Below are positions 2,564 through 64,000 of a stretch of 64,000 nt of DNA, piece after piece. Every line of letters begins with the position of its first letter. Position 1 is the stretch's first letter. A model generated the notes under the pieces. The model did not search any database. It was given only the letters and a program-made list of their open reading frames with translations, and was not told the origin of the DNA. The stretch is taken from NCBI GenBank assembly GCA_965207265.1, contig OZ242279.1, positions 4,174,145 through 4,238,144 of the forward strand. Reading direction: 5' to 3'. Both the position numbers and the translations under genes were made by a program. This DNA comes from Vicinamibacterales bacterium. GTDB lineage: Bacteria; Acidobacteriota; Vicinamibacteria; Vicinamibacterales; UBA8438.

Positions 2564-2597
2564 AGGTTTCGTGACGTCTGCCCCAGGGTCCGAATAG

Positions 2598-3782
2598 TTG
2601 GCCAGGATCCTGATCTCCTGCGGGGAGCCGTCCGGCGACCTCTATGCCGGTGCGCTGACCGCCGCGCTGCGCGATCTGGATGCAGGCGCCCGTGTCTTCG
2701 GCCTGGGCGGGGACCACCTGCGTGACGGCGGGGCGGAGCTCGTGGCTCACTACCGGGGGCTGGCCGCTACCGGCCTCTCCGAGGCGCTCGCGGTGCTGCC
2801 CCGTTCGTACGCCGTATACCGGGAGCTGGTGTCGCGCGCCCGCGCAGAGCGTCCGGACGTGTTCGTCGCGGTCGACTTTCCGGAGATCAACTTCAGGGTC
2901 GCGGCCGCGGTGCGCCGGCTCGGCATCCCGGTCGTGTACTACATCGGACCGCAGCTCTGGGCGTGGCGGCGGCGGCGCATCCAGACGATGCGGCGCCTCG
3001 TCGATCTTGCGCTGGTCATCTTCCCGTTCGAGGAGGCGCTGTACCGCGAGGCGCGCATTCCGGTGGAGTTCGTCGGCCACCCGTTGCTGGAGCTGTCGAG
3101 CGCGACGGAGGGCAGGGCGGACTTTCTCCGGTCGCTGGAGCTCGACCCGGCGGTGCCCACGATTGCGTTGCTGCCGGGCAGCCGGCCGAACGAGCTGCGG
3201 GCGATTCTGCCGGATGTCGTGCGTGCCGCGGGTCTCGTGCGCAAGAGGATCCCGGCGGCGCAGTTCGTCGTGGCGCGCGCCCCGAACCTGGACGACGCTC
3301 TGTTGGCCCCGGTCGGCCCTCTGGTCGAATCCGGCGCGGCGGTGGTGGTCGAGGGACGCACGGACGACGTCCTGGCCGCCGCCGACGTCGTGGTCACCGC
3401 GTCCGGCACGGCGACGGTCCAGACCGCCATTCACCGGCGGCCGATGGTGATCGTGTACCGGTTGTCGGCCCTGACCTACCGCATCGTCAAGACCTTCTCG
3501 CACGTGCGGCACGCGGGCATGGCCAACCTGATCGCCGGCGAACCGGTCGTGCCGGAGCTGATTCAGGACGCTTTCACCCCGGCCGCGGTGGCGGACGAGG
3601 TCGTCTCGTTTCTCACGGACTCCGCACGGGCCGAGCGGACCCGGACGGCGCTGGGGCAAGTGCGCGCGCGCCTCGGGTCGGCGGGAGCGAGCCGACGGAC
3701 GGCCGAGCGCATCCTGTCGGTTGCGGGGCGCGGTCCCGGATCCGGGTGCTTGCCCGGTGACGGCGCCGAGTCGTTACAATGA
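2598..3782 (+). CDS. lpxB: Lipid-A-disaccharide synthase
   Basis: It has the N-terminal 'ILISCGEPSGDLYAG' motif and a 'LLPGSRxxEL' block. At about 390 aa its length is typical for LpxB. The start codon is TTG. Confidence 0.85.
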   Translation: MARILISCGEPSGDLYAGALTAALRDLDAGARVFGLGGDHLRDGGAELVAHYRGLAATGLSEALAVLPRSYAVYRELVSRARAERPDVFVAVDFPEINFRVAAAVRRLGIPVVYYIGPQLWAWRRRRIQTMRRLVDLALVIFPFEEALYREARIPVEFVGHPLLELSSATEGRADFLRSLELDPAVPTIALLPGSRPNELRAILPDVVRAAGLVRKRIPAAQFVVARAPNLDDALLAPVGPLVESGAAVVVEGRTDDVLAAADVVVTASGTATVQTAIHRRPMVIVYRLSALTYRIVKTFSHVRHAGMANLIAGEPVVPELIQDAFTPAAVADEVVSFLTDSARAERTRTALGQVRARLGSAGASRRTAERILSVAGRGPGSGCLPGDGAESLQ

Positions 3783-3854
3783 TTCGCTGACCGGGATCCC
3801 GACAGGGAGGGGTTCACCTGGTCCGCAGGATACCGACGATTTTGCGGGGGAGGC

Positions 3855-6800: not shown

Positions 6801-7151
6801 CCGGCGCAACGTCCGGACATGCTGCGCGACCCGAACGTGCCGCGCGGCGAGCGCACCGTCGAGCGCTGGTTCGACACCGGCGCGTTCGCCCTACAGGCGC
6901 CCTTCTCCTACGGCAGCGCCCCCCGCAACCCCGTCTTCGCCCCCGGCTACGCCAACGTGGACATGGCCCTGGCCAAGAACTGGCCGCTGGACAACGGCAG
7001 CCGGCTGGAGTTCCGCTGGGAGGTCTTCAACGTCCTCAATCGCGCCAACTTCGACCTGCCGAACCGCTTCTTCGGGTCCCCCAACTTCGGCCGCATCTTC
7101 AGCGCGCTGAACGCGCGGGAGATGCAGTTCGGCCTGCGCTTCGTGTTCTGA
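3855..7151 (+). CDS. TonB-dependent outer-membrane receptor with N-terminal carboxypeptidase-regulatory-like domain
   Basis: A signal peptide (PILLALLLAGWAASAAGQ) is followed by a CarboxypepD_reg-like block 'GVVRDESGAVLPGATIVATHVDTGFSVERVTDADGRFFMASLPIGAWEI'. The plug-like 'NGRQFLQLAQL..' block and the C-terminal beta-barrel ending '...MQFGLRFVF' (terminal Phe) are also present. The start could instead be the Met at 3870. Confidence 0.85.
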   Translation: MTELAMRAAAKTSRPILLALLLAGWAASAAGQANTGGLGGVVRDESGAVLPGATIVATHVDTGFSVERVTDADGRFFMASLPIGAWEITAELPGFRRVVRTGVFLDIGRELDLPFELALGALSEEVTVTADVPLLQTNNAEISDVIAGHEVEQIPLNGRQFLQLAQLSDAVVIPPGGTRGAALQQAGPLPNIGGQRAGHNIYLLDGVKVTDELFNNLVINPSVDSIQEFKIQKSMYPPEFGGKASALINVATKAGTNQYHGSAFTFVRDERFDAHNFFAPRDEPVPPLDQGQFGGTFGGPIVRDRTFAFLSYEGQRSTRSLTKTFSVPSAAVRGGDFTGLDPLCDPLTRDAATGACGSPFAGNRIPSGRIDPIAAAFLEQVPLPNAGGEVQNLTSVERSESDVDQFSARLDHRVGASDQMFLRFSTFDAHDLQPFGTSVQQEALIPGFGRTLSTRTRNLAASYTRTIGTAMLNETRFGWMSVDGGQESLRRGIDFAQSTGLLGVTRDPRDVGYPQIDTAGLYSAMGDPTSFVFRRNEHFELYNNFLIDRGAHHLKVGGYWFHLRFRPENPDTARGRFRYTGRFSGNPFADFLLGYPVEARSGIGGRGSEDARTNWLHLYAQDDWRVNDDLTVNIGLRYEINQHMRDVDNRLSTIDVSVPGGRYVIASDAAGNISPAANELLPLIPIPWVTSAEAGWDRSLLRPSKTRFAPRLGFAWLADDAGSTVVRGGYGIFLNQWAYSVQTAFARNLPFFFLKQVDVPAGQFVPAWDTRSILAADPTGSIGGSIMDYDFQVEYTQTWSGGVQTEIRPGTAFEMFYMGSYTIGADNSTVHNVPVPGPGSISGRRAIPQLAGIRAIRFDGKSIYHAVTFKTVRRLRNDFAFDVAYTLSQSKDDASSPGATAFESNLPQDVRNIFPGENALSSFDHRHQLVGSATYELPFQRDAGGWREGLLGHWRLNGIVTVQSGAPFTVNLTDDRANIGAGPAQRPDMLRDPNVPRGERTVERWFDTGAFALQAPFSYGSAPRNPVFAPGYANVDMALAKNWPLDNGSRLEFRWEVFNVLNRANFDLPNRFFGSPNFGRIFSALNAREMQFGLRFVF

Positions 7152-7183
7152 GCTTCGGCCGGCGCGCCGCCAGGGAGTGGAGC

Positions 7184-8272
7184 ATGAACGCCGACGACGT
7201 GAAGACGTTCGCGCGGGAAGCCGGGTTCGACCTGTGCGGCATCGCGCCGGCGAAGGCCTTTCCGGAGCTCCGGTTCCTCGACGACTGGCTCGAGCGCGGC
7301 TACGCAGGCGAGATGCGGTACCTGGCTCGAAACGCGCGGCGGCGATCCGACGTGCGCGAGGTGGTGCCGTCGGCGCTCTCCGTCATCTCGCTGGGCACGC
7401 TCTACAACACCGACCGCCCCTACTCGACCGAGGTGAACGATCCGGACGCCGCGCTCATCTCGCGCTACGCCTGGGGCGAGGACTACCACGACGTCGTCGG
7501 CCGGCGTACCGAGGCCCTGCTCGAGCGGATGCGAGCGGCGACCGGCGAGCCTTTCGCGGCTCGCTGCTACGTCGATACCGGGCCGGTACAGGAACGCGTG
7601 TACGCGCAGCACGCCGGACTCGGCTGGATCGGCAAGAACACCTGCCTCATCAACCCGGAGCAGGGGTCGTGGTTCTTCCTGGCGGAGATCATCACGAGCC
7701 TGCCCCTCGAGCCCGACGCGCCGCAACTCGACCAGTGCGGCACGTGCACGCTGTGTCTCGAGGCGTGTCCGACCGGTGCGTTTCCCGAGCCGCGCGTGCT
7801 CGACGCCACGCGCTGCCTGTCGTATCTGACCATCGAGATCCGCGGGGCGATTCCGGAAGGTCGGCGGCCCGACGTCGGTACGCGCGTCTACGGTTGCGAC
7901 ATCTGCCAGGAAGTCTGTCCCTACAACGCGGCGCCGCTGCGATCGGACGACCCGGCGTGGCAACCGGCGCCGGAGCTGGACCAGCCCCGGTTGTCGGCGC
8001 TCTGGAGGCAGTCCGACGAGAGCCTGGAGTCGTTGCTCGGGCGCAGCGCCATGTCGCGGGCCAGGCTGAAGGGACTTCGACGCAACGTGGCCGTCGCGCT
8101 CGGCAACAGCTCCACGGTGGCGTCGGCTGCGGCGCTCGCCGAGCCTGTTTCCGCCGCGACGCCGTCGCGAGGAGACCCCATCGTGACGGAGCACGTCGGC
8201 TGGGCGCGCCGGCGCCTCGCCCCGCAGTCGTCGGCCCGGGCGGCGGAAACCGGCGACGACGAGTCCGGCTGA
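7184..8272 (+). CDS. queG: Epoxyqueuosine reductase
   Basis: This is the in-frame tail of track ORF 4919..8272, starting at ATG 7184 (MNADDVKTFAREAGFDLCGIAP...). It has two ferredoxin-type Cys clusters, 'CGTCTLCLEACPTGA' and 'CDICQEVCPYN', plus 'CLSYLTIE'. Confidence 0.85.
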   Translation: MNADDVKTFAREAGFDLCGIAPAKAFPELRFLDDWLERGYAGEMRYLARNARRRSDVREVVPSALSVISLGTLYNTDRPYSTEVNDPDAALISRYAWGEDYHDVVGRRTEALLERMRAATGEPFAARCYVDTGPVQERVYAQHAGLGWIGKNTCLINPEQGSWFFLAEIITSLPLEPDAPQLDQCGTCTLCLEACPTGAFPEPRVLDATRCLSYLTIEIRGAIPEGRRPDVGTRVYGCDICQEVCPYNAAPLRSDDPAWQPAPELDQPRLSALWRQSDESLESLLGRSAMSRARLKGLRRNVAVALGNSSTVASAAALAEPVSAATPSRGDPIVTEHVGWARRRLAPQSSARAAETGDDESG

Positions 8273-52172: not shown

Positions 52173-53413
52173 ACCGCCATGTGCGCGCCCACGACGCGCT
52201 GCAGCGCGTCCTGATTCGGCTCTCGCGACCACTCGCCCCGCTCCGACGTGCCGCCCAGGACGATGCCGTCGCGGCGCGGCTGCATGTGGATGCCGAGGAG
52301 CCCGCGGGTATCCCCGTCGGGAGGGTCGCCGGCGATACCCCAGTCGACTTCCTGCTGGGGCACGAGCACGGTGAGCTGGCCCTTCAGCGGCAACAGCTCG
52401 TCGTCGCCGAACAGGTCGCGCGCGCCCAGCCCGCTGCAGTTGACGACGAGCGGCTCGCTCAGCTCCACCAGCTCGCGCACCTCGGTGAACTTGCGGATCT
52501 CGATGCGCCCGCCGAAGTCGATGAAGTCGTGAACCAGTGCATCCAGGTAGATGGACGGCTCGATGCGCATTTGGTTGCGCCGGATGGCGTAGCGGCTGGG
52601 AAAGGGGTGCTCCCCGGGTTCCAGCGTGAGCTGGCCGGAGCGCAGATGGGCGGGAAGCAGCGGCTCTCGATCCTCCTCGCCATCGTCCTCGGCGGCGCCC
52701 GGGGGCGAGTCGCTGAGAGCGTAGCGATCGATCCAGGAAACGCCGAATCTGGTCCCCGCCAGCAACTGCAGCTCGCGGTAGGAAGTCTCGACCGCTTCGC
52801 GGAACTGGGCATCCCAGGCAGGTGTCCTGAGGTCGCCGTCGACCAGCCCCGCGGTGGGGGTGAAGCCTGCGAACGACATGTTCGAGGTCGTGTTCGGCGG
52901 CACCGACATGGCGTAGATGGTCACCGCGAACCCGCGCCGCTGCAACTGGCGCGCGGCGGTGAGGCCCACGGCACCGCAACCGATGACCGCCGCCCGGCGG
53001 CTGTCGTGGTCGAGGGCCATTTCGGCCGCCATCCGGCCCGTGCCCCAGGAGAGCGACATGCCGGAGCCGCCGTGGCCGTAATTCTGGATCACCGTGGTGC
53101 CGTCGAGCCGGTCGGCGCGCAATACGAAGCCGGAGGGGCGGTGCGGGCGCAACCCGACCGTGGTGCGGATGATCCGGTCCCATTCGGCGCGTACGGGTGC
53201 GAGCCGCAGAGGCGGCCGCCGCATCGGCGTCGGCGCGGTCGGCGCCGGAGCCGACCGTGCCGAGCAGCCGCCCAGGCCGGCGCCCACGAGGCCCATGCCG
53301 CCCATCTTCAGGAGCGTTCTTCGGTCCACTGTGCCTCCGGGTTCAGTCGCGCCGGGTGTCATGGCGGTCTCGTTACGGACACCCATCTTGGATCGTCCAT
53401 CCATGGCGGGCAA
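52151..53413 (-). CDS. Tat/lipoprotein-type exported FAD-dependent oxidoreductase, D-amino-acid-oxidase (DAO) family, circularly permuted
   Basis: The leader 'DRRTLLKMGGMGLVGAGLGGC' is followed by 'GLRPHRPSGFVLR...TVIQNYGHGGSGMSLSWGTG', which is normally the C-terminal DAO signature. Only after that comes the Rossmann 'AAVIGCGAVGLTAARQLQRRGFAVTIYA'. The TTG start at 53413 is uncertain; alternatives include the internal Met of 'MTPGA' at about 53362. Confidence 0.75.
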   Translation of the reverse strand: MPAMDGRSKMGVRNETAMTPGATEPGGTVDRRTLLKMGGMGLVGAGLGGCSARSAPAPTAPTPMRRPPLRLAPVRAEWDRIIRTTVGLRPHRPSGFVLRADRLDGTTVIQNYGHGGSGMSLSWGTGRMAAEMALDHDSRRAAVIGCGAVGLTAARQLQRRGFAVTIYAMSVPPNTTSNMSFAGFTPTAGLVDGDLRTPAWDAQFREAVETSYRELQLLAGTRFGVSWIDRYALSDSPPGAAEDDGEEDREPLLPAHLRSGQLTLEPGEHPFPSRYAIRRNQMRIEPSIYLDALVHDFIDFGGRIEIRKFTEVRELVELSEPLVVNCSGLGARDLFGDDELLPLKGQLTVLVPQQEVDWGIAGDPPDGDTRGLLGIHMQPRRDGIVLGGTSERGEWSREPNQDALQRVVGAHMAVYSAMRV

Positions 53414-53436
53414 CTCCGCTCGGTTGGCGGGCCCGG

Positions 53437-53465
53437 GTTCGGCAGAATGTTGGGGGCTGCCGAAC
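53437..53465. promoter_or_regulatory. Perfect 9-bp inverted repeat in a divergent promoter region (candidate operator)
   Basis: GTTCGGCAG-N11-CTGCCGAAC lies in the 140-nt gap between the divergently transcribed DAO-like gene (start 53413) and PQQ-cupredoxin copy A (start 53554). Confidence 0.35.
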
Positions 53466-53553
53466 TCTGTGGTTGAATGGAACGCGTCACAAACGCAGCA
53501 GCCCGCGCGCTGCCGTAGCGCCGCGCTGCCGGAGACCGGAAAAGGAGGGCGCC

Positions 53554-55617
53554 ATGCCTCGACGTCATCGCTCGCTCGTCGTCACGGTCGCGTCGGTGAT
53601 CGCGCTCGCGGTGTTCTCCGGCGGCCTCGCCGGGCAGGAGCCCGAGCCGGGACGCGGCTATCCGTCGACCGACTGGCCCTTTGCCGGCGGCAACTGGGCC
53701 AGCTCGCGCTACTCCACGCTGGACGACATCGCGGCCGACACGGTGGATCGCCTCGGCGCTGCGTGGGTGGCGCCGCTCCCCGGCGGCGCGGCGTCGCGCT
53801 CGACCCCGGTGGTGCAGGACGGCGCCATCTACCTGACCGGCGGCGCCAACGTCTTCGCCTTCGACGCGCGAACGGGAGACCTCGTCTGGCGCTGGCAGCC
53901 GGACCCCGATGCCGGGCGGGTGGTGTCGTGGCAGGGCGTCGTCGTGGCCGGCGACCTGGTCGTCTTCGGCACGCGCAGCGGAGAGGTGATCGCGCTCGGC
54001 CGGGACAACGGCGAGCTGGTGTGGGCGACGCGCGTCGGGAGCCCGGAGCAGACCCGGGGCGAGGTGGTGACGACCGCGCCGATGTACGCGCGCGGCAAGG
54101 TGTTCGTGGGCCTGGCCAACGGCGACATCGGCGGACAGGGCCGCGTGCTGGCCCTCGACGCGGCGACGGGCGAAGTGGAGTGGATCTTCTTCGTCGTGCC
54201 GCGGCCGGGCGAGTTCGGCCACGAGACCTGGCCGCAGGACAGCGACTCGTGGGAGTACGGCGGCGGCGGCGTCTGGCTGGTCGGCACCGTCGATCCCGAC
54301 CTGGGGATGGTCTACTTCTCGACCGGCAACCCGGTGCCGATGTTCGGGGGCGAGCTGCGCGAGGGGGATAACCTGTTCACCGCTTCGGTCCTCGCGCTCG
54401 ACATGGAGACCGGCGAGCGGCGCTGGCACTACCAGGTGGTGCGCCACGACGTCTGGGACGCCGACATCGCCACGCCGCTGCTGCTGTACGACACGACGGT
54501 CGACGGCGAGCCGGTGAAGGCGGTGGCCGCGATGCGCGCCGACGGCTATCTGTTCCTGTTCAACCGCGAGACCGGCGAGCACCTGCTGCCCGTCGAGGAG
54601 CGCGAGGTGCCGCAGGACCCGCACCAGCTCACGGTGCCGACCCAGCCGTTCCCGGTGCAGACCGAGAGCATCCTCTTCGAGTGCTCGTACTGGCGCGACC
54701 GGGTGCCGCCGCCGTTCGAGCTCAGTTGCAGCAGCTACACGCCCCCGTCGGTCGACGAGCAGACGGTGGTGGCGCCGGGGTTGCCGATCCCGCGGGTGCG
54801 GGTCACGCCGATGGCGTTCTCGCCGCAGACCGGCTACATCTACGCGCAGGGGCGCGCGCACGTCGGCCGCGCCCGCCGCTTCACGGATCCGTTCGTCTGG
54901 AACACTACCCAGTTCCACCTGACCCTGCCCGACGCCGTCGGCATCCTGGCCGCCGTCGACCCCCGCACCGGCCGCGTGGTGTGGCGGAAGGAGATGCCGG
55001 CCGCGTTCCTCGGCGTCAGCGGTCCGCTCGTGACCGCGGGCGGCCTGCTGTTCCGCGGCTCGCCCGGCGGACAGGTGGAGGCCTACGACGTCCGGACCGG
55101 CGACCGCCGCTGGGCCTTCCGGACGAGCGAGGAGGGGTCGCGGCTGCGTCCCGGCCCGGCCTCGACCTACGAGCTGGACGGCAGGCAGTACATCGCCGTC
55201 CCGATGGGGCCCGCGCTCTGGGCGTTCGCGCTCGACGGCGAGGTGCCGGCCCGCGGCGAGCCGTCTCCGGATCCGCCGGTGGACGATCAGCCCGCCGGCC
55301 CCGCCCCGCGCGAGACCGCCGAGATCGAGACGGCGACGCTGCTGGAGAACCCGCGCGGCGCGGTCGGCGGCCGGCGCTACGCCTTCGACGAGTACAACTT
55401 CAACCCGATCCGCGCGCGGGTCAGCGCGGGCACGCGCGTCCGGTTCACCAACAACGGCGAGATCTCCCACACCGTGGCCGCGCGCGACGGAAGCTGGAGC
55501 GCCGGCACGCTGAACCCGGGCCTGTGGGGCTTCGTCACGTTCGACGAGCCGGGGACGTTCCTCTACCACTGCGAGGACCATCCCTGGATGGTGGGGGAGA
55601 TCACGGTCGATCCGTGA
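53554..55617 (+). CDS. Exported PQQ-dependent dehydrogenase-like propeller fused to a C-terminal amicyanin-like type-1 copper domain (copy A)
   Basis: This is the in-frame part of track ORF 53197..55617, starting at ATG 53554 after AAAGGAGGG. It has a signal peptide and propeller motifs ('GGNWASSRYSTLDDIAADTVDRLGAAW', 'VPRPGEFGHETW', 'LALDMETGERRWHYQVVRHDVWDAD'). The C-terminal approx. 100 aa carry 'ISHTVAARDG' and 'FLYHCEDHPWMVGEITV'. Confidence 0.8.
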   Translation: MPRRHRSLVVTVASVIALAVFSGGLAGQEPEPGRGYPSTDWPFAGGNWASSRYSTLDDIAADTVDRLGAAWVAPLPGGAASRSTPVVQDGAIYLTGGANVFAFDARTGDLVWRWQPDPDAGRVVSWQGVVVAGDLVVFGTRSGEVIALGRDNGELVWATRVGSPEQTRGEVVTTAPMYARGKVFVGLANGDIGGQGRVLALDAATGEVEWIFFVVPRPGEFGHETWPQDSDSWEYGGGGVWLVGTVDPDLGMVYFSTGNPVPMFGGELREGDNLFTASVLALDMETGERRWHYQVVRHDVWDADIATPLLLYDTTVDGEPVKAVAAMRADGYLFLFNRETGEHLLPVEEREVPQDPHQLTVPTQPFPVQTESILFECSYWRDRVPPPFELSCSSYTPPSVDEQTVVAPGLPIPRVRVTPMAFSPQTGYIYAQGRAHVGRARRFTDPFVWNTTQFHLTLPDAVGILAAVDPRTGRVVWRKEMPAAFLGVSGPLVTAGGLLFRGSPGGQVEAYDVRTGDRRWAFRTSEEGSRLRPGPASTYELDGRQYIAVPMGPALWAFALDGEVPARGEPSPDPPVDDQPAGPAPRETAEIETATLLENPRGAVGGRRYAFDEYNFNPIRARVSAGTRVRFTNNGEISHTVAARDGSWSAGTLNPGLWGFVTFDEPGTFLYHCEDHPWMVGEITVDP

Positions 55618-55702
55618 ACCGTCGGGCCTGGGAATGAAGGGAGTTGCTCGCCGGGGCGCCCTGACCGCCCTGCGACTGGAGACCGGAGAAGAGGAGGGTG
55701 CC

Positions 55703-57766
55703 ATGCCTCGACGTCATCGCTCGCTCGTCGTCACGGTCGCGTCGGCGGTCACGCTCGCGGCCCTCGTGGTCGGCCTCGCCGGACAAGGGCCAGAGCCGGG
55801 TCGCGGCTATCCCTCGACCGACTGGCCCTTCACCGGCGGCAACTGGTCCAGTTCGCGCTACTCGACGCTGGACGAGATCGCCGTCGACACGCTCGATCGC
55901 CTCGGCGCCGCGTGGGTGACGCCGCTCCCCGGCGGCGCGGCGTCGCGCTCGACCCCGGTGGTGCAGGATGGCGCCATCTACCTGACGGGCGGCGCCAACG
56001 TGTTCGCCTTCGACGCGCGCACGGGCGATCTCATCTGGCGCTGGCAGCCCGATCCCGACGCAGGGCGGGTGGTGTCGTGGCAGGGCGTGGTCGTGGCCGG
56101 CGACCTGGTCGTCTTCGGGACGCGCAGCGGGGAGGTGCTCGCGCTCGGCCGCGACAGCGGCGAGCTGGTGTGGGCGACGCGCGTCGGTAGCCCGGAGCAG
56201 ACCCGGGGCGAGGTGGTGACGACCGCGCCGATGTACGCGCGCGGCAAGGTGTTCGTCGGCCTCGCGAACGGCGACATCGGCGGGCAGGGCCGCGTGCTGG
56301 CCCTCGACGCGGCGACCGGCGAGGTGGCGTGGACCTTCTTCGTGGTGCCACGGCCGGGCGAGTTCGGCCACGAGACCTGGCCGCAAGACAGCGACTCGTG
56401 GGAGTACGGCGGCGGCGGCGTCTGGCTGGTCGGCACGGTCGATCCCGACCTGGGGATGGTCTACTTCTCGACGGGCAACCCGGTGCCGATGTTCGGGGGC
56501 GAGCTGCGCGAGGGGGACAACCTGTTCACCGCCTCCGTACTCGCGCTCGACATGGAGACGGGCGAGCTGCGCTGGCACTACCAGGTGGTGCGCCACGACA
56601 TCTGGGACGCCGACATCGCCACGCCGCTGCTGCTGTACGACACGACGGTCGACGGCGAGCCGGTAAAGGCGGTGGCCGCGATGCGGGCCGACGGCTACCT
56701 CTTCCTGTTCAACCGGGAGACGGGCGAGCCGTTGCTGCCCATCGAAGAGCGCGAGGTGCCGCAGGACCCGCACCAGCTCACGGTGCCGACCCAGCCGTTC
56801 CCGACGCAGACCGAGACCATCCTCTTCGAGTGCTCGTACTGGCGCGACCGGGTGCCGCCGCCGTTCCAGCTCAACTGCAGCAGCTACACGCCGCCGTCGG
56901 TGGACGAGCAGACGGTCGTCGCACCCGGGGTGCCCATCCCGCTGGTGCGGGTCACGCCGCTGGCGTTCTCGCCCGATACCGGCTACATCTACGCCCAGGG
57001 CCGCGCGCACGTCGGCCGCGCCCGCCGCTTCGCGGATCCGTTCGTCTGGAACACCGCGCGGTTCCACCTGACGCTGCCCGACGCGGTCGGTGTGCTGGCC
57101 GCCGTCGACACCGCGACCGGCCGCGTGGTCTGGAAGAACGAGATGCCGAGCGCGTTCCTCGGCACTAGCGGTCCCCTCGTCACCGCGGGCGGCCTGCTGT
57201 TCCGCGGCTCGCCCGGCGGACAAGTGGAGGCCTACGACGTCCGGACCGGCGACCGTCGCTGGGCCTTCCGCACGAGCGAGGAGGGGTCGCGGTTGCGTCC
57301 GAGCCCGGCGTCGACGTACGAGCTGGACGGCAGGCAGCACATCGCCATCGCGATGGGGCCCGCGCTCTGGGCATTTGCCCTCGACGGTCCGGTGCCGGCG
57401 CGCGGCGAGCCGTCGCCCGACCCGCCGGTGGACGATCAGCCCGCCGGCCCCGCCCCCCGCGAGACCGACGAGATCGAGACGGCGACCCTGCTCGAGAACC
57501 CGCGCGGCTCGGTCGGCGGCCGGCGCTATGCGTTCGACGAGTACAATTTCAACCCGATCCGCGCGCGGGTCAGCGCGGGCACGCGCGTCCGGTTCACCAA
57601 CAACGGCGAGATCCCCCACACCGTGGCCGCGCGCGACGGAAGCTGGAGTGCCGGCACGCTGAACCCGGGCCTGTGGGGCTTCGTCACGTTCGACGAGCCG
57701 GGGACGTTCCTCTACCACTGCGAGGACCATCCCTGGATGGTGGGGGAGATCACGGTCGATCCGTGA
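55703..57766 (+). CDS. Exported PQQ-dependent dehydrogenase-like propeller fused to a C-terminal amicyanin-like type-1 copper domain (copy B)
   Basis: This is the in-frame part of track ORF 55634..57766, starting at ATG 55703 after GAGGAGGG. It has the same 687-aa length as copy A and the same Cu-ligand pattern ('IPHTVAARDG', 'YHCEDHPWM'). Confidence 0.8.
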   Translation: MPRRHRSLVVTVASAVTLAALVVGLAGQGPEPGRGYPSTDWPFTGGNWSSSRYSTLDEIAVDTLDRLGAAWVTPLPGGAASRSTPVVQDGAIYLTGGANVFAFDARTGDLIWRWQPDPDAGRVVSWQGVVVAGDLVVFGTRSGEVLALGRDSGELVWATRVGSPEQTRGEVVTTAPMYARGKVFVGLANGDIGGQGRVLALDAATGEVAWTFFVVPRPGEFGHETWPQDSDSWEYGGGGVWLVGTVDPDLGMVYFSTGNPVPMFGGELREGDNLFTASVLALDMETGELRWHYQVVRHDIWDADIATPLLLYDTTVDGEPVKAVAAMRADGYLFLFNRETGEPLLPIEEREVPQDPHQLTVPTQPFPTQTETILFECSYWRDRVPPPFQLNCSSYTPPSVDEQTVVAPGVPIPLVRVTPLAFSPDTGYIYAQGRAHVGRARRFADPFVWNTARFHLTLPDAVGVLAAVDTATGRVVWKNEMPSAFLGTSGPLVTAGGLLFRGSPGGQVEAYDVRTGDRRWAFRTSEEGSRLRPSPASTYELDGRQHIAIAMGPALWAFALDGPVPARGEPSPDPPVDDQPAGPAPRETDEIETATLLENPRGSVGGRRYAFDEYNFNPIRARVSAGTRVRFTNNGEIPHTVAARDGSWSAGTLNPGLWGFVTFDEPGTFLYHCEDHPWMVGEITVDP

Positions 57767-57789
57767 CGCCTGTCTGGAGGACGAAGAGC

Positions 57790-59217
57790 GTGAGTGCGAA
57801 GAAGCTGGGCGGGTCGATGCTTTCGGCGGCGCTGCTGTTGGCCACACTAGGCCTCGGCGCCGGCGCCCAGGACACGCGGCTGCTCGACGCGGCCCGGGCG
57901 GCGGACTCGATGCGGGTGATGGCCCTTCTCGACCAGGGTGTCGCGGCGAATACCCGGCAGGCGGATGGCGCGACCGCCCTGCACTGGGCTGCCCACTGGG
58001 ACGATGCAACGATGGCGGACGCCCTCCTCGGGGCCGGCGCCGACGTAGACGCGGCGAACGACTTCGGCGCCACGCCGCTCTGGCTGGCCTGCCTCAACGG
58101 CAGCGAGACGATGGTCGCGGCCCTGCTGGCGGCCGGCGCCGACGCGAACGCCGCGCTGCCTTCGGGAGAGACGGTGCTGATGACCGCGTCCCACACCGGG
58201 TCGGCCAAAGCGGTGCGCCTGCTCGCGTCCCACGGGGCGGACCTGAACGCCCGGGAGCACACGCGGGGGCAGACGGCGCTGATGTGGGCGGTGGCCCAGC
58301 AGCATCCCGACGTGGTGGAGAGGCTGGTCGCGCTCGGGGCCGACGTCCATGCCCGCTCGGCCCCCCAGCCCCGGCGCATCCACACGCGGACCGCCGGGTT
58401 CAACCCGAGCGGGGTGATCGACACCGTGCTGGGCAGCAACACGCCGATCCTGTTCGCGGCCCGGCAGGGCAACCTCGAAGCCGCCAGGCACCTCGTGGCC
58501 GGGGGCGCCGACGTGAACGACACGGCGGCGACGGGCACCAGCGCACTCGTCGTCGCGGCGCACAGCGGCCATACGGCGCTCGCCCTGTTCCTGCTCGAGC
58601 AGGGCGCCGACCCGAATGCGGCCGAGGCCGGCTACTCCGCCCTGCACGCCGCCACGCTGCGCGGCGACGAGACGCTGACGGCGGCGCTGCTCGCGCGCGG
58701 CGCGGATCCGAATGCACCGGTGGTCCGTGGCAGCCAGGGCCGGCGCAACAGTCCCGACTACGTGCTGGATCACGATGTGGTCGGCGCCACCGCCTTCTGG
58801 CTGGCCGCACACTTCGCCGAGCCCGGCATCATGCGGGCGCTGGCCGACGGTGGAGCCGACCCGCAGATCGTGCTGGAGGACGGCAGGACGCCGCTGCTGG
58901 CGGCGGCAGCCGCCCGCCGCCGCCGGGAACCGGGACTGGCCCCGAACCCCGTTGAGGACGAACGGCTCGTGCTGGAAGCGGCGCGGACGGCGATCGAAGC
59001 GGGGGGCGAGGTCAACGCGGCGGATGCGGCCGGGAACACGGCGTTGCACACCGCTGCTCGGAGACGCCTCGACACAGTCGTCCAACTGCTGGCCGACAGC
59101 GGCGCCGACCTGCACGCCGTGAACGACAACGGGCAGACGCCGTTGGAGGTGGCCCGCGGGCGCGCTGGCCGCGACAACAGCACCGTCGAGCTGCTGCGCC
59201 GCCTCGGGGACGGCTAG
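57790..59217 (+). CDS. Exported ankyrin-repeat protein (paralog 3 of 3)
   Basis: A GTG start at 57790 (after GGAGGA) or ATG at 57817 is followed by the signal-like 'MLSAALLLATLGLGAGAQ'. It is collinear with the two other ankyrin proteins ('ADGATALHWAAHWDDATMADALLGAGADVDAANDFGATPL'). Confidence 0.8.
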   Translation: MSAKKLGGSMLSAALLLATLGLGAGAQDTRLLDAARAADSMRVMALLDQGVAANTRQADGATALHWAAHWDDATMADALLGAGADVDAANDFGATPLWLACLNGSETMVAALLAAGADANAALPSGETVLMTASHTGSAKAVRLLASHGADLNAREHTRGQTALMWAVAQQHPDVVERLVALGADVHARSAPQPRRIHTRTAGFNPSGVIDTVLGSNTPILFAARQGNLEAARHLVAGGADVNDTAATGTSALVVAAHSGHTALALFLLEQGADPNAAEAGYSALHAATLRGDETLTAALLARGADPNAPVVRGSQGRRNSPDYVLDHDVVGATAFWLAAHFAEPGIMRALADGGADPQIVLEDGRTPLLAAAAARRRREPGLAPNPVEDERLVLEAARTAIEAGGEVNAADAAGNTALHTAARRRLDTVVQLLADSGADLHAVNDNGQTPLEVARGRAGRDNSTVELLRRLGDG

Positions 59218-59847
59218 CTCTTCCAGTTCAGGCAGCGTCCCGGTCTCACCTGCCGGCCAGGGAAGCCCTTGAGCGGGCTCGATCTTCGCTATCCGTTCGT
59301 GGTTCTCGGCGAGTTCGCGGTTCACTTGGCCGAACCGCAGGTTCATTCTGTTGCTGAAGCCTTCGAACTGTCCGCCCGGCCACGGATCCGCGGCGAGGCA
59401 AATCCTCGCTTGTACGTTATCCTCCGAACCGTTGGAAGCCGGTCCATCGCATCGACAGTCCGGTTGCGGGATCGACTACGCGAGCGAAAGGAAACAGCAC
59501 GAACAGGTGCCTGCAAGTGAAATGGCGACGACTTGGACGCCGAAGACCCCGCAGGGGTCAGAGGTCCTCTCGCGCCCAACCGCGGCTAGCTGAGCCGTAC
59601 GAGAACACCAGCGTCGCATTCGGGACCCCACGGGTTCGCCGCTCACTGCCGGCCACCTACGGTGCCAGAGGTGCTCGGTTCCGGCGTCGTGGTGCAGCAC
59701 GACGGGCGTCGCATACCGACGCTCACGTCCCTTGACGCTGAAATCGAGGATCACATTGACATGGGGTTGTGGCATTACTTGGAGCCAGCCGATCCGGCGA
59801 AGCGCCACGCGACCAGCATGCAAGTGTGGCCCGGTAGGTAGGCCTAT

Positions 59848-62800
59848 ATGGTCGAAATCCGCGTTCGTGCACGCACCCTCGACATGCTCGGCCGCCAACA
59901 GATCGCCGGTGTGCCTACCGCAATCAGCGAGCTCTTCAAGAACTCCCACGACGCATACGCCCACAATGTGGAAGTGGATTTCTTTCGCCGTTCTGGGTTG
60001 TTCGTCCTGCGAGACGATGGGATTGGCATGTCGTATCGAGATTTTGTGGAACGATGGTTGACGCTCGGCACCGAGAGCAAGCTGAGCGCTAACCTCGGAG
60101 GCGTCTCTCAGCCACCTTCCGACCCTAGCCAAGCCAGCCGTCCAATCATGGGCGAGAAGGGGATCGGTCGCTTAGCGATCGCTGCGATTGGGCCCCAGGT
60201 GCTCGTCCTTACGCGTGCTAAGGCATCCGAAGAAGCCGACCATCTCGTTGCCGCCTTCATTCACTGGGGCGCATTTAGTCTCCCTGGCGTCGACCTGAGT
60301 GCCATCCAGATTCCCGTTCGGCTGTTGTCGGGGGGCACGTTGCCGTCAGCCGACGAAGTCTCCAGCATGGTCGCGGAGGTGCGAGAGAATATCACGGGTG
60401 TGGCTGTTGGCCTGCCGTCTTCGCTACCGGCTCGAATTCTAGCAGACCTCGACCGCTTTGATGTCGTTGTAGATGAGCTGTACGAGCGGCTTCCAGCCGG
60501 GCCGACGCTACGCGACAAGAAGTACGGAACACATTTTATCATTCTGCCGACAGAAGAGATACTGCCCGACGACATCGATGGGCGTGGAAGCGACGACATC
60601 GCTCCACCACTGATCAAGGTGTTGGTCGGGTTTGCGAACACGATGACCCCTGGGCATCCGCCTGCTACAATACAGGCCCGGTTCCGTGATCACTTGCGTG
60701 ATGGTATAGTCCATGAACGGATAGCGGGCTCCGCGTTCTTCACGCCCGACGAGTTCCAAAAGGCCGACCATCACGTCTTAGGCGAGTTCGACGAGTTTGG
60801 CCAATTTCGGGGAACCGTCCAGGTCTACGGCGCGGAAGCCGTCGACTATCTCTTGCCGTGGCCGGAGGCAGGTGGTCATCCCCTCCTATGTGGTCCACTG
60901 AAGATTAGTTTTGCCTATGTGCAGGGTGAAGCGCGAGCAACGAAGCTGCCTCCAGAAGATCATGCCCGACTAGTCGCGAAGCTCAACCGCATTGGCGGCT
61001 TGTACATATACCGCGATGGGATCCGAATCCTCCCGTATGGGAACTCAGACTATGACTTCCTGAACATTGAACAGCGACGCACAAAGAGCGCATCGTATTA
61101 TTTTTTTTCGTATCGTCGCATTTTCGGCGTGATCGACATCACCCGTGACGCCAACCCGAACCTCGTTGAGAAGGCGGGACGCGAAGGCTTTCGCGAAAAC
61201 CGCGCTTATCGTCAACTTAAGCGTCTGCTTGAGAATTTCTTCGTGCAGTTGGCAGCAGAATTCTTTCGTGAGGGGGGGTTGCGCGCCGAAGAGTTCGTCA
61301 AGACGCGGGATGATCTGGAGCGCAAGGAACTCCTGCGTCGCCGTCGTGCTACACAGGTCCGGGTCCGTCGCGCCGAGTTCGCAAAACACTTGGACGCCTT
61401 TTTTGAGGCTGCGAACGCCCGCGAACCGGAAAGGGCAGTCGGAAGCCTCTTGGAAGCGGCCAGCGAGAGATTTGCGGGGCTCGCGTCGTCGGAAGGCGAA
61501 GATGATGTCGCGCGAATGCTCCTGGACCTAGAGCAGGAAGTCACCGGTGCGCTGGCCAACATCGATGCGAAGTACAAGGCACGGCAGCCCAGGGGGTTCG
61601 GTTTGACGCGCGCCTTGCAGCGCGACTGGGACGCTTATCGGGCGGAACGCAAGCGGCTCGAAGGGCAGGTCTTTCATCCAGCGGCTGCACGTTTGGCTGA
61701 CCTTGTCGCGCAGCACGCTGTGCGCATGCGGGTGCGGTTGGACCACCGCCGACGCGTACAGCGTGCGGTAGAGAAGGTTAGCGAGGTTCACCGCAAACGG
61801 GCCCGTTCCCTGCAGCGGGAGACGCTGGAAGAGATGGAGCGGGTACAGGCACGTGTTGTCTCCGGGATACGGGACGGACTGATTGTCGTGGAGTCTGCGG
61901 TCCGTGAAACGGTCAGCGAGTTAGAACGGACGGACACGAGTTCGTTGGATGCGAGCAGCTATGAACTATTGCGCCGTACTCTTGAGGACCGGATTGCCGT
62001 GGCGGTAGACGGCGAGGTGCGCAATATAGTGAAGTTGAGGGAACAACTACAAAGCGTGGGCACCAGGGAGGGTTTGGAGCAGGCCGAAATGACAGATGCT
62101 CTTGAGGAGGAGCTGGAAGCGTTGCGTGAGCGGGACACTGCGGGACTGCAGTTGGCGCAGGTTGGGATGGCGCTCGGCGTCGTGCACCACGAATTTGCGA
62201 GTACAATTCAAGGAGTAAGGAACGGGCTCCGACGGCTCAAACCGTGGGCTGATGCTAACGAGAAGCTTCGTGTGCTTTATGGAGATATTCGTTCGCACTT
62301 CGAGCACCTCGACGGCTATCTTACGCTGTTTACTCCGTTGGATAGGCGGTTGCAGCGTCGCCGCGTGCGAATGAGAGGGGAGGAGATTCTCCAGTTCCTC
62401 ATGGATCTCTTCGGTGAACGCCTAAAGCGGCATGCCACGGAGTTGAGCGCGACCGTGGCCTTCCGTGAGAGGACCATTGTAGGATTCCGCTCCTCATTCT
62501 ACCCATGCTTTGTGAACCTGGTGGACAATGCGATCTTCTGGGTTACAAGTGGAAGCCCTGCGCGAAGACGCGAAATCATCCTGGACGCCGATGGTGACGC
62601 CCTTACGGTAACGGACAGTGGACCGGGCATCGGTCCCCGTGACGCAGAGGCTGTCTTTGAAATGGGCTTTACACGGCGGCCCGGTGGGAGAGGCATGGGG
62701 TTGTATATCTCTCGTCAGGCACTGCGTCATGTAGGATACGACGTCACATTGGATGCATTCGAGAATAGTCGGGGAGCACGGTTCCGCGTCTCGGCATGGA

Positions 62801-62865
62801 AGGAGGCACGTGAGGGCGGGAGCGATGGAGGTCGTACGCAGAGGGAGGTGAAGGGTCGTGAATGA
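59848..62865 (+). CDS. Cytoplasmic hybrid GHKL protein: N-terminal MORC/Hsp90/MutL-type ATPase (HATPase_c_3-like), coiled coil, and C-terminal histidine kinase core (DHp H-box plus HATPase_c)
   Basis: N-terminal Bergerat motifs are 'ISELFKNSHDAYA' (E28/N32/D35), 'DDGIGM' (aa 56-61) and 'GEKGIGRLA' (aa 102-110). A Glu/Arg-rich helical region spans about aa 480-770. The H-box 'GVVHHEFASTI' has H780/H781 at nt 62185-62190. The N-box is 'NLVDNAIFW' (N890), G1 is 'DSGPGIG' (D923) and G2 is 'GGRGMGLYISR'. No hydrophobic TM segment is seen. Confidence 0.8.
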   Translation: MVEIRVRARTLDMLGRQQIAGVPTAISELFKNSHDAYAHNVEVDFFRRSGLFVLRDDGIGMSYRDFVERWLTLGTESKLSANLGGVSQPPSDPSQASRPIMGEKGIGRLAIAAIGPQVLVLTRAKASEEADHLVAAFIHWGAFSLPGVDLSAIQIPVRLLSGGTLPSADEVSSMVAEVRENITGVAVGLPSSLPARILADLDRFDVVVDELYERLPAGPTLRDKKYGTHFIILPTEEILPDDIDGRGSDDIAPPLIKVLVGFANTMTPGHPPATIQARFRDHLRDGIVHERIAGSAFFTPDEFQKADHHVLGEFDEFGQFRGTVQVYGAEAVDYLLPWPEAGGHPLLCGPLKISFAYVQGEARATKLPPEDHARLVAKLNRIGGLYIYRDGIRILPYGNSDYDFLNIEQRRTKSASYYFFSYRRIFGVIDITRDANPNLVEKAGREGFRENRAYRQLKRLLENFFVQLAAEFFREGGLRAEEFVKTRDDLERKELLRRRRATQVRVRRAEFAKHLDAFFEAANAREPERAVGSLLEAASERFAGLASSEGEDDVARMLLDLEQEVTGALANIDAKYKARQPRGFGLTRALQRDWDAYRAERKRLEGQVFHPAAARLADLVAQHAVRMRVRLDHRRRVQRAVEKVSEVHRKRARSLQRETLEEMERVQARVVSGIRDGLIVVESAVRETVSELERTDTSSLDASSYELLRRTLEDRIAVAVDGEVRNIVKLREQLQSVGTREGLEQAEMTDALEEELEALRERDTAGLQLAQVGMALGVVHHEFASTIQGVRNGLRRLKPWADANEKLRVLYGDIRSHFEHLDGYLTLFTPLDRRLQRRRVRMRGEEILQFLMDLFGERLKRHATELSATVAFRERTIVGFRSSFYPCFVNLVDNAIFWVTSGSPARRREIILDADGDALTVTDSGPGIGPRDAEAVFEMGFTRRPGGRGMGLYISRQALRHVGYDVTLDAFENSRGARFRVSAWKEAREGGSDGGRTQREVKGRE

Positions 62866-64000
62866 AGCAGTGACGCCGGCTACGTTTGGGCAGCTCTCGA
62901 AGGAGGTCGTTGAGCGCTTCCTGCAGACGGTGGTGGTTTTGGACGATGGCGCATTCATGGGGCCGGCCCCGGTGCCGGTCGTGCGGGAGCCCGAGGAGAA
63001 CACTCCAATTCGGGAAGAAGGTCCAGAGGATCTAGAGAACGGCGCCGGGGCCCCTGAGGCGGGCGTCCCGAGCGCCAACGCATTGGATGCGGACGCCTTG
63101 ATCAGCGGGTTTGCGGCGCGTGGGCTCGTGTGCGCCGTTCTTGCACCAGGGACCGGTGACGACGGCTCTGAGGTAATCATCGGCATCGCCCGACGGGCCG
63201 ATATTGTGATTGTCGATTGGCAGCTGAGTCAGGAAGCGAGCGGCGAGGTGGCGACGGGGATCATTCGTAGAATCAAAGAGGAGGACGGCGCGGCGGGTGG
63301 GCGGCTTCGCATGCTCGTTGTGTATACGGCCAATCCAGATCTAGAGAGCGTCCGGGCCGAGGTGAGCGGTGTCATCGATGAGTGTGTTCCCAGCGAGCGA
63401 CCGGGTGGGGTTCTCGCGCTGAAGGCAGAAGACACCACGATACTGTTCGTCCGCAAGGGCAGCACAACCGAGGTGGCCGGTAGGATTGGCGAGCCCGATC
63501 TGCCGGGGAGGCTGATCGACGAGTTCGTGGAGATGGGAAACGGCATTCTTGCCAATGTGACTTTCGGCTGCATTGCTGCCATTCGCGAGGAGACGCATCG
63601 CGTCCTTGCACGGTTTCATCGGGGGATGGACGGGCCGTTTGTGACGCACCGAATCCTGCTTGCGACGCCGGACGATGCGGAGGACTACGCGGTGGAGCTC
63701 GTGTGTTCGGAGGTCTTAGCCGTGCTTCGGAGCAGCATGGTCGGTGCGAGGTACGCCGGGAGGGAGGCCATCCAGTTGGCGCTCGGGGAGCGCGAAGCGC
63801 GGGGTGACGAGTTCCGGCTCATGACACAAAAGGACTCTGCGGAGGGAGCAAGGACGATCACGGCCGAGGACTTCATGAAACTGGTAGACGCGGGGCCGCG
63901 GGGGCTCGCGGAGATTGTCGACAATGGCGGTACAAGCAGTCAACAGCGGAGACTTTACGAGCGCGTCCACCTGCTCTTGTTTCCGGACGTGGCGGCAGGC
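62858..64000 (+). CDS. Receiver (REC)-domain protein with unrecognised C-terminal region; 3' end lies outside the window
   Basis: It is not in the ORF track because there is no stop in the window. My translation from GTG 62858 is open for 381 codons to nt 64000. An in-frame stop lies at 62849, the SD GGAGG is at 62844-62848, and there is an 8-nt overlap with the kinase stop. REC landmarks are 'VVVLDDG' (D29/D30), 'IVIVDWQL' (D120), 'MLVVYTANP' (Thr) and 'ILFVRKG' (Lys). Confidence 0.7.
   Translation, partial: MNEAVTPATFGQLSKEVVERFLQTVVVLDDGAFMGPAPVPVVREPEENTPIREEGPEDLENGAGAPEAGVPSANALDADALISGFAARGLVCAVLAPGTGDDGSEVIIGIARRADIVIVDWQLSQEASGEVATGIIRRIKEEDGAAGGRLRMLVVYTANPDLESVRAEVSGVIDECVPSERPGGVLALKAEDTTILFVRKGSTTEVAGRIGEPDLPGRLIDEFVEMGNGILANVTFGCIAAIREETHRVLARFHRGMDGPFVTHRILLATPDDAEDYAVELVCSEVLAVLRSSMVGARYAGREAIQLALGEREARGDEFRLMTQKDSAEGARTITAEDFMKLVDAGPRGLAEIVDNGGTSSQQRRLYERVHLLLFPDVAAG

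Follow-up and report, generated by a model that had tools for sequence, protein, structure and literature searches.

What role can be assigned to a soluble histidine kinase with two ATPase modules and to the receiver protein coupled to it, which together lie at the right-hand end of a 64,000-nucleotide (nt) stretch of a Vicinamibacterales genome (contig OZ242279.1; the whole stretch is referred to here as the window)? Judged from its sequence, the pair is an intact copy of an already described kinase-receiver family. Our preferred reading, to which we assign a probability of about 0.6, is that the two genes form the kinase/receiver core of a horizontally acquired phosphorelay module linked to restriction-modification (R-M), of the HEF_HK/Response_reg_2 family. 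The canonical form of this family is a tight operon of a C5 cytosine methylase, the kinase and the receiver, often with Vsr, and the pair probably acts as a restriction-like defence module. A defence or conflict role had been proposed in the original prediction, which was made from the letters of the window, and it stands as the best reading of the pair. The prediction missed the near-obligate C5 methylase partner, found in 76 of 81 related loci. Because of this partner, often accompanied by Vsr, the system is R-M-like rather than Detocs-like.

The family was defined by Bellieny-Rabelo, Pretorius & Moleleki in 2021 (Genome Biol Evol, PMC8011034), who introduced HEF_HK (PF19191) and Response_reg_2 (PF19192). 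Their paper, which contains no experiments, reported kinase-receiver linkage of 91.6% over 644 regions and HATPase_c_3 + HEF_HK + HATPase_c as the dominant kinase architecture (174 of 222 sequences). The kinases were described as soluble and descended from paraMORC ATPases, and the receivers as having loop extensions and no known domain past the receiver (REC) domain; type II R-M genes, C5 methylases and Vsr were enriched nearby (PMC8011034). The pair in the window belongs to the same families, with a soluble group 1 kinase next to a receiver whose beta-1 is followed by a long loop and whose C-terminus has no assignment. Since these Pfam families and the 2021 paper already cover this layout, the earlier claim of a new architecture does not hold. 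The features of the two genes are as follows.

59848-62865, forward strand: soluble dual-GHKL histidine kinase, HEF_HK family "group 1" architecture, 1005 amino acids (aa) (open reading frame (ORF) call, Pfam)
59848-60267, forward strand: N-terminal MORC/paraMORC-type GHKL ATPase domain, aa 1-140 (Pfam HATPase_c_3, AbrB similarity)
60268-61287, forward strand: MORC/Hsp90-like middle (transducer) region with family-specific inserts, aa 141-480 (Foldseek)
61288-62157, forward strand: Glu/Arg/Ala-rich coiled-coil linker of about 290 aa, aa 481-770 (AlphaFold2 (AF2), composition)
62158-62358, forward strand: HEF_HK dimerization and histidine phosphotransfer (DHp) domain, with predicted phospho-acceptor H781 (codon 62188-62190) in an H-E-F motif (Pfam PF19191)
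62506-62793, forward strand: catalytic ATP-binding (CA) domain with N, G1, F and G2 boxes (Pfam HATPase_c, Foldseek)
62843-62865, forward strand: translational coupling site, with Shine-Dalgarno sequence GGGAGG (62843-62848), receiver GTG (62858) and kinase TGA (62863-62865)
62858-64000, forward strand: Response_reg_2-type receiver, first 381 of 548 aa (Pfam PF19192, database protein P0001)
62885-63469, forward strand: REC domain, aa 10-204, with D29-D30, predicted phospho-acceptor D120 (63215-63217), T157 and K200 (family alignment)
62948-63082, forward strand: disordered acidic/Pro-rich loop after beta-1, receiver aa 31-75 (AF2, pLDDT <50)
63470-64000, forward strand: start of the receiver output region, with the helical domain cut by the window edge (AF2)

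The kinase and its receiver

The kinase gave three Pfam matches, each exceeding its own cut-off: HATPase_c_3 (PF13589) at aa 24-138 (1e-14, 55 bits), HEF_HK at aa 771-837 (9.3e-28, 96.9 bits against a cut-off of 24.1, with the whole model length covered) and HATPase_c (PF02518) at aa 887-982 (8.8e-15, 55.5 bits). The N-terminal module carries the GHKL motifs E28/N32/D35, D56-D-G-I-G-M61 and G102-EKGIGRLA. The C-terminal kinase motifs are VVHHEF at 778-783, the N-box residues N890/D893/N894 and the G1 and G2 boxes. Domains and motifs together bear out the earlier description of two GHKL modules in one soluble polypeptide. More than 100 full-length homologs were found, with 46-95% identity, and in an alignment of 45 kinase sequences all of these motifs were invariant except for one position: H781 never changed, but H780 was variable. 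This difference leaves H781-E782-F783 as the probable phospho-acceptor motif.

The GHKL fold of the N-terminal module was supported by the HATPase_c_3 profile and by structure comparison of the AF2 model. The best Protein Data Bank (PDB) match of the model in Foldseek was MORC2 bound to DNA (9cdh, E = 1.5e-9, 531 aligned columns), and further matches of the N-terminal ~480 residues were MORC3 (6o1e) and the N-terminal plus middle domains of Hsp90. The model is a monomer prediction with a pLDDT (predicted local distance difference test) of 77.5, and details of the transducer domain are provisional. Aa 130-480 had been regarded as a region of unknown fold, a view that had to be given up, as Foldseek aligns this part with the GHKL plus transducer arrangement of MORC2, MORC3 and Hsp90. 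Many residues of the transducer region are invariant in the 45-sequence alignment, including the YIYRDGIRILPYG and NPNLxEKAGREGF motifs. The Bergerat-fold set with invariant E28, N32, D56xG58xG60 and G102-G107, followed by an S5-like transducer, is that of a MORC-type ATPase. The first ~125 aa also matched the NCBIfam model for the N-terminus of BbrUII/HgiDII restriction enzymes (2.5e-18, below the cut-off) and the PADLOC REase_II models, the latter as a weak GHKL match.

Between the two modules, residues 481-770 contain 38 Glu and 45 Arg per 290 residues, and in the AF2 model helices run from 481 to about 803. This is the Glu/Arg-rich helical segment of some 300 aa that had been noted before. 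In Foldseek the C-terminal core aligned structurally with HK853, CpxA and ZraS (TM-target values of 0.55-0.63). No transmembrane segment was found in the kinase (maximum Kyte-Doolittle value of 1.31 in a 19-residue window, no transmembrane helix in the AF2 model), and Pfam gave no match to PAS, GAF or HAMP, in agreement with the original prediction.

The receiver gene starts within the end of the kinase gene. GGGAGG lies 9 nt upstream of the receiver GTG, and the start overlaps the kinase end by 8 nt, so the coupling proposed earlier is borne out. The receiver frame is open as far as nt 64000, and the gene ends at virtual window position 64504. Its full sequence was obtained from P0001 (548 aa), which is 100% identical to the partial receiver of the window, and from the locus L001, a 21-kb metagenome contig that matches 11,143 nt of the window without a difference and runs 2.5 kb further. 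The whole receiver gene is contained in L001. PF19192 matched aa 21-175 (8.4e-29, 101.4 bits against a cut-off of 27). The canonical Response_reg model of Pfam gave no match, as befits a divergent family. The AF2 model (pLDDT 85.4, pTM 0.81) shows a (beta-alpha)5 fold for REC, and Foldseek matched this domain to the receiver 3jte with a probability of 1.0. The catalytic landmarks predicted for the receiver are all in place: DD29-30, D120 and K200 are invariant across the family, and T157 is nearly so. The 45-aa insertion after beta-1 is also present, but it is not atypical as first thought, being a trait of the whole receiver family with a median of about 41 aa and a range of 11-96.

With 548 aa in total, 344 residues without assignment follow REC, where more than 170 had been expected from the part inside the window. 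According to the AF2 model (pLDDT mostly >85), they form a helical domain (aa 215-393), a beta-rich domain (aa 394-515) and a long terminal helix. Invariant residues of the output region are R243 and H264 inside the window and G412, C424, C429 and E539 beyond it, and the region carries an invariant Cys-x4-Cys-Asp motif. The earlier statement that no known output domain follows REC was upheld by every search made. For aa 205-548, the AF2 model of the receiver gave no credible Foldseek match against PDB and BFVD, a 52-sequence profile gave none against PDB sequences, and Pfam run on all 52 family members at E <= 1 gave nothing credible and no conventional output domain. The full-length receiver matched no NCBIfam or PADLOC model.

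This output region bears on a somewhat unlikely alternative, namely that the pair is a regulatory two-component system in which the phosphorylated receiver would bind DNA through its helical C-terminal domain and switch transcription of methylase, Vsr or restriction genes. A small beta-hairpin region within the helical domain of the AF2 model (H295-314, E319-334) could be a winged helix, but no helix-turn-helix (HTH) or winged-helix family was matched by any of the 52 family members even at E <= 1, and Foldseek found no DNA-binding fold in the receiver. The output region has no recognisable catalytic motif, which would suit such a switch; at 344 aa, with two domains and an invariant Cys pair, it nevertheless far exceeds a typical DNA-binding output. 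The idea has been voiced for the family, as Bellieny-Rabelo et al. speculated on a signalling cascade controlling R-M (PMC8011034).

Linkage to a cytosine methylase across the family

The preferred reading of an R-M-linked phosphorelay module draws on the gene neighbourhoods of relatives. ORFs around the receiver were clustered in 80 related loci from reference genomes plus L001, 81 loci in all. Kinase and receiver are present in every one of them. A C5 cytosine methylase (PF00145, 2.9e-53) was found in 76, almost always directly upstream of the kinase, and the locus of the window is one of only five without it. The order methylase, kinase, receiver on one strand occurs in 72 of the 81 loci, with a median methylase-kinase gap of 2 nt; the commonest kinase-receiver spacing is a 4-nt overlap. 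Such gaps of 2 nt and -4 nt leave little internal regulatory DNA and argue further against a regulatory role. Vsr (PF03852) is encoded at varying positions in 52 loci. No other gene is conserved beside the cassette across the survey loci.

The flanks of relatives contain integrases, transposases, type I R-M genes, EcoRII-C, GmrSD, AbiEii, Zeta toxin, AAA_15/21, HNH and PLD genes. In locus L086 the pair adjoins a HigB-like (Gp49) toxin gene, an HTH gene and type I restriction genes, and in L084 a relative of the pair lies on a plasmid-like element. As the prediction had anticipated, the homologs thus sit in mobile and defence islands and not in housekeeping regulons. The survey loci span many bacterial phyla as well as Methanosarcina, Methanoperedens and Halobacteriota. 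Clustered at 50%, the receiver family has 1,515 representatives, which come from Bacteria, Archaea and candidate-phyla bacteria; the best 150 of these share one uniform length and architecture. In the survey the cassette also occurs in Archaea and candidate-phyla bacteria, whereas the 2021 paper describes bacteria only (PMC8011034). Among 2.9 million viral contigs no relative was detected, and plasmids gave two weak matches only, one of them an IS-truncated remnant (IS, insertion sequence) in Pseudomonas syringae.

Several relatives call for separate mention. In L086 the kinase is split into a 211-aa HATPase_c_3 ORF and a 738-aa HEF_HK ORF (1443-4451), and in L084 (6848-9992) only a 738-aa kinase ORF was called, with no contiguous N-terminal GHKL domain; both may be true splits or frameshifts, and they may equal the "group 2" of the 2021 paper. 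P0189, a 1365-aa protein on one 24-kb contig, combines C5 DNA_methylase, HATPase_c_3, HEF_HK and HATPase_c. Since just 2 nt usually separate the methylase and kinase genes, P0189 may reflect either a true gene fusion or an artefact of sequencing. Complete methylase-kinase-receiver cassettes occur in the archaeal loci L013, L014, L030, L046 and L052, and P0174 is a kinase homolog in Parcubacteria. The P. syringae remnant (L087, 7730-8735) lies on the mobilizable plasmid pPsy0479a and is truncated by IS5. What is left encodes an "ATP-binding protein" fragment of 83 aa and a "response regulator receiver domain" protein of 268 aa.

An ordinary cytoplasmic two-component system for a metabolic cue such as nucleotide levels, with no conflict role, is a very unlikely explanation of these data. 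The 2021 paper suggested that the N-terminal ATPase might sense intracellular nucleoside triphosphate levels, and Pectobacterium homologs are up-regulated during plant infection (PMC8011034). Such a role is hard to match with the methylase linkage in 76 of 81 loci, the mobile and defence contexts, the patchy distribution over Bacteria and Archaea, the low GC content relative to the host genome and a receiver that has no conventional output domain.

Rates of change differ along the cassette. The following mean pairwise identities were calculated over the 63 loci with the methylase-kinase-receiver order (for example the methylase at L074 5957-7060).

Kinase GHKL domain (aa 1-140): 64%, the slowest-evolving segment
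Kinase, second half of the transducer (aa 336-480): 57%
Kinase coiled coil (aa 481-770): 26%, the fastest-evolving kinase segment
Receiver output domains: 29-30%
Methylase target-recognition region: 47%
Methylase catalytic core: 44%

The target-recognition region of the methylase is thus no less conserved than its catalytic core, which suggests one target site shared across the family, unlike ordinary R-M systems.

Within the preferred reading, we infer the following course of events. The kinase would act as a dimer whose N-terminal GHKL ATPase and transducer form an ATP-driven clamp or sensor on DNA. The sensor would most likely read the mark of the partner methylase, which would supply the self mark. 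The coiled coil of ~290 aa would relay the signal to the DHp/CA core, which would autophosphorylate on H781 and then pass the phosphate to D120 of the receiver. Phosphorylation would release or activate the 344-aa C-terminal module, which may be a DNA-binding switch or an effector that targets DNA or the cell.

State of the locus in its island

The two closest relatives of the pair in the window are the sister loci L082 and L085. L082, with an 88% identical receiver, has a block of ~5.3 kb in common with the window at 91% nucleotide identity. This block contains the leader, the kinase, the receiver and 55 nt beyond, and the flanking genes are unrelated to those of the window. L085, with an 87% identical receiver, shares its chromosomal site with the window; DAO, PQQ-dehydrogenase (PQQ, pyrroloquinoline quinone) and ankyrin genes lie upstream. 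In both sister loci the receiver is followed by IS elements. Beyond these, encoded on the opposite strand, lie a truncated Vsr, of which a C-terminal fragment is left, and a C5 methylase of 343 aa, the latter 2.7-5 kb downstream. The methylases of L082 and L085 share 93% identity, and over their full length they are 43-49% identical to the cognate upstream (cluster-2) methylases of other phyla, a divergence about equal to that of the kinase itself. The arrangement in L082 and L085 indicates a clade layout of K> R> (IS hot spot) <V' <M, in which the methylase is convergent and lies downstream behind IS elements, in contrast to the rest of the family.

In L001, the receiver is followed by a dubious high-GC minus-strand ORF, a C-terminal fragment of an ISAzo13 transposase and an HTH transposase fragment, and no further same-strand gene was found. 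Further genes had been expected past nt 64000; no such gene continues the operon on its own strand, but both sister loci have the convergent methylase downstream. From the synteny with these loci, the genome of the window probably also has its cognate methylase convergently downstream, past the IS debris and outside the sequence examined.

The region between the receiver stop and the Vsr fragment and methylase carries three distinct IS loads at one spot and looks like an insertion hot spot. The loads are ISAzo13 and HTH fragments in L001 (11648-13688), a 472-aa ORF suspected to be a transposase in L082 (11702-13549), and a DDE_Tnp_1/DUF772 gene plus a DruA/Tnp_DNA_bind gene in L085 (11704-15793). 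In L085 ISAzo13 also interrupts the kinase about 328 nt into the gene (5076-7510) and the methylase is intact. An order of decay in which the kinase is lost and the methylase kept would be expected if it were the kinase side that does harm.

These insertions raise the question of whether the pair in the window is itself a decaying orphan in an IS-bombarded island, left without present function after the methylase and Vsr were lost or separated. We consider this unlikely. The ISAzo13 and HTH transposase fragments after the receiver, the split kinase of L085, the truncated Vsr of L082 and L085, and like decay in L017, where the kinase is cut by ISL3, all fit such a course, as does the lack of a methylase or Vsr in the window or the next 2 kb. 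However, both ORFs of the window are full length, the signals for translational coupling are intact, and kinase and receiver retain every family-invariant residue. The ratio of nonsynonymous to synonymous substitution (dN/dS) against L082 was 0.115 in the kinase gene and 0.238 in the receiver gene, with dS at about 0.27, as an average over the entire time since the split from L082. Every sub-domain stayed below 0.31, and the kinase coiled coil had an omega of 0.21. The low dN/dS and the retained invariant residues point to maintenance of both genes by purifying selection, despite the IS-ridden island.

The pair lies in a stretch that is richer in AT, as had been observed: GC content is 0.67-0.74 before and 0.59-0.61 after nt 60000, a drop from about 0.70 to about 0.60. 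On a finer scale the fall begins near nt 59150. One further feature precedes the kinase.

59228-59847, forward strand: conserved non-coding leader, the left end of the low-GC block shared with L082 (L001/L082 comparison)

The shared block begins at L001 6371/6517, which corresponds to window 59228/59374, directly after the stop of the ankyrin gene. The GC content of the leader is 0.58-0.65, and neither an Rfam match nor a sigma-70-like promoter was found in it. A hidden gene or RNA in these 620 nt was considered and rejected: no ORF is conserved, the long reading frame of L082 being broken by a frameshift in the window, and its composition is that of random high-GC sequence.

Several observations weigh against an R-M-linked defence module. 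No methylase or Vsr is encoded within the 64-kb window or 2 kb beyond it; when the window and L001 were searched by tblastn for matches to 82 cognate methylases and 64 Vsr proteins, only chance matches appeared, and the best of them, at 31.9 kb, was discarded because it falls among unrelated genes. Intact kinase-receiver pairs with no adjacent methylase occur in at least two relatives, L025 and L060. The island is ridden with IS elements, and one has disrupted the L085 kinase. No nuclease or other recognisable effector was found in kinase or receiver, and the receiver C-terminus matches nothing. Apart from the weak GHKL match to type II restriction endonucleases, no PADLOC 2.0 defence model matched either protein. 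The sensor half is the most conserved part of the kinase, unlike sensors in an arms race, and the divergence of the methylase target-recognition region co-varied with no kinase or receiver segment (partial Mantel test, 63 loci). A literature search found no experimental work on the HEF_HK/Response_reg_2 family.

Two neighbouring features of the window lie upstream of the island. At 53197-55617 and 55634-57766, tandem PQQ-dependent dehydrogenase paralogues each have a C-terminal cupredoxin-like tail. The single PQQ copy of L085 matches both at about 91% nucleotide identity, which indicates a recent tandem duplication. The gene at 57673-59217, which adjoins the low-GC island, encodes an ankyrin-repeat protein with at least eight Ank repeats and a hydrophobic N-terminus. 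In bacteria, proteins of this type are uncommon.

Relation to known systems and meaning for the family

The closest system with experimental validation is Ambrosia, an anti-phage system of Pseudomonas aeruginosa described in a 2025 preprint (bioRxiv 10.1101/2025.09.30.679545). It consists of the XRE regulator AbrR, the N6 methylase AbrA, the HATPase kinase AbrB, the REC protein AbrC and the HNH nuclease AbrD, and point mutations in each protein abolish defence, among them AbrB N40A and receiver D60A (bioRxiv 10.1101/2025.09.30.679545). We compared residues 1-399 of AbrB (preprint Table S1) with the kinase of the window. The GHKL domain of AbrB is 30% identical to the N-terminal domain (E = 1e-16) and its middle domain is 31% identical to residues 338-450 (E = 4e-13); N40 of AbrB corresponds to N32 of the kinase. 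In both systems one cassette encodes a methylase, a receiver and a soluble kinase with two GHKL modules. Ambrosia differs in its N6 adenine methylase, its XRE regulator, its separate HNH nuclease and the shorter length of AbrB (747 aa), and no XRE, N6 methylase or HNH gene lies next to the kinase-receiver pair in the window and L001. AbrC, a 209-aa receiver, has no detectable similarity to the Response_reg_2 family or to the 344-aa output beyond the REC fold.

Identification of the pair as Ambrosia was rejected for the receiver and the gene set, as only the sensor half of the kinase is homologous. With a shared sensor-kinase logic and an unrelated receiver, Ambrosia is a cousin system and not the same family. 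Its authors propose transcriptional control and saw infection-induced expression (bioRxiv 10.1101/2025.09.30.679545), which speaks for the regulatory alternative discussed above; the unrelated AbrC speaks against extending the proposal to the present receiver.

The pair was also compared with three other groups. MORC/paraMORC proteins and BbrUII/HgiDII enzymes resemble the kinase in the GHKL plus transducer fold of the N-terminal ~480 aa and in the association with C5 methylases and Vsr. Where they have nuclease or other C-terminal modules, the kinase has a coiled coil and a complete histidine-kinase core, and it would pass its output to a separate receiver protein. Classical HisKA-type pairs such as HK853-RR468 share the DHp and CA core and the catalytic DD, D, T, K set of the receiver. 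They are set apart by the present kinase having no membrane or PAS/GAF/HAMP input and using a second GHKL ATPase as its apparent input, and by the divergent receiver family.

Detocs comprises a sensor kinase of the tetratricopeptide repeat (TPR) type, DtcA, a buffering receiver, DtcB, and DtcC, a receiver fused to an effector of the purine nucleoside phosphorylase (PNP) type; it is not known to include a methylase. Its logic resembles that of the present pair, in that a cytoplasmic kinase would sense infection and phosphorylate a receiver joined to an output module. The present system has a MORC-type ATPase in the sensor position and a single receiver gene. Pfam found no TPR or PNP domain in kinase or receiver, and no PADLOC model matched the receiver, so that the pair lacks the hallmarks of Detocs.

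For the window, the result is chiefly a correct annotation: a module of a known family in an IS-rich acquired island, whose methylase partner probably lies just off the sequence examined. For the family, the main question raised is the role of the receiver's output domain, as the HEF_HK/Response_reg_2 system is widespread and nearly always linked to a DNA cytosine methylase, and this domain matches no known fold. A bolder version of the preferred reading, which we regard as possible and put forward tentatively, is that the cassette represents a new R-M-like class of immunity, phosphorelay-gated restriction. In it, the MORC-type clamp would detect DNA that lacks the family's conserved 5-methylcytosine mark, and His-Asp transfer would turn on the 344-aa output. 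If this were true, the receiver output would be a previously unseen effector or DNA-reader fold, and the clade of the window would show a kinase-receiver half that is kept by selection though physically uncoupled from its methylase. Phosphorelay-gated restriction would also enlarge the defence repertoire by a new effector domain, and it would tie MORC-type ATPases to the surveillance of DNA methylation in prokaryotes, echoing the role of MORC proteins in eukaryotes.

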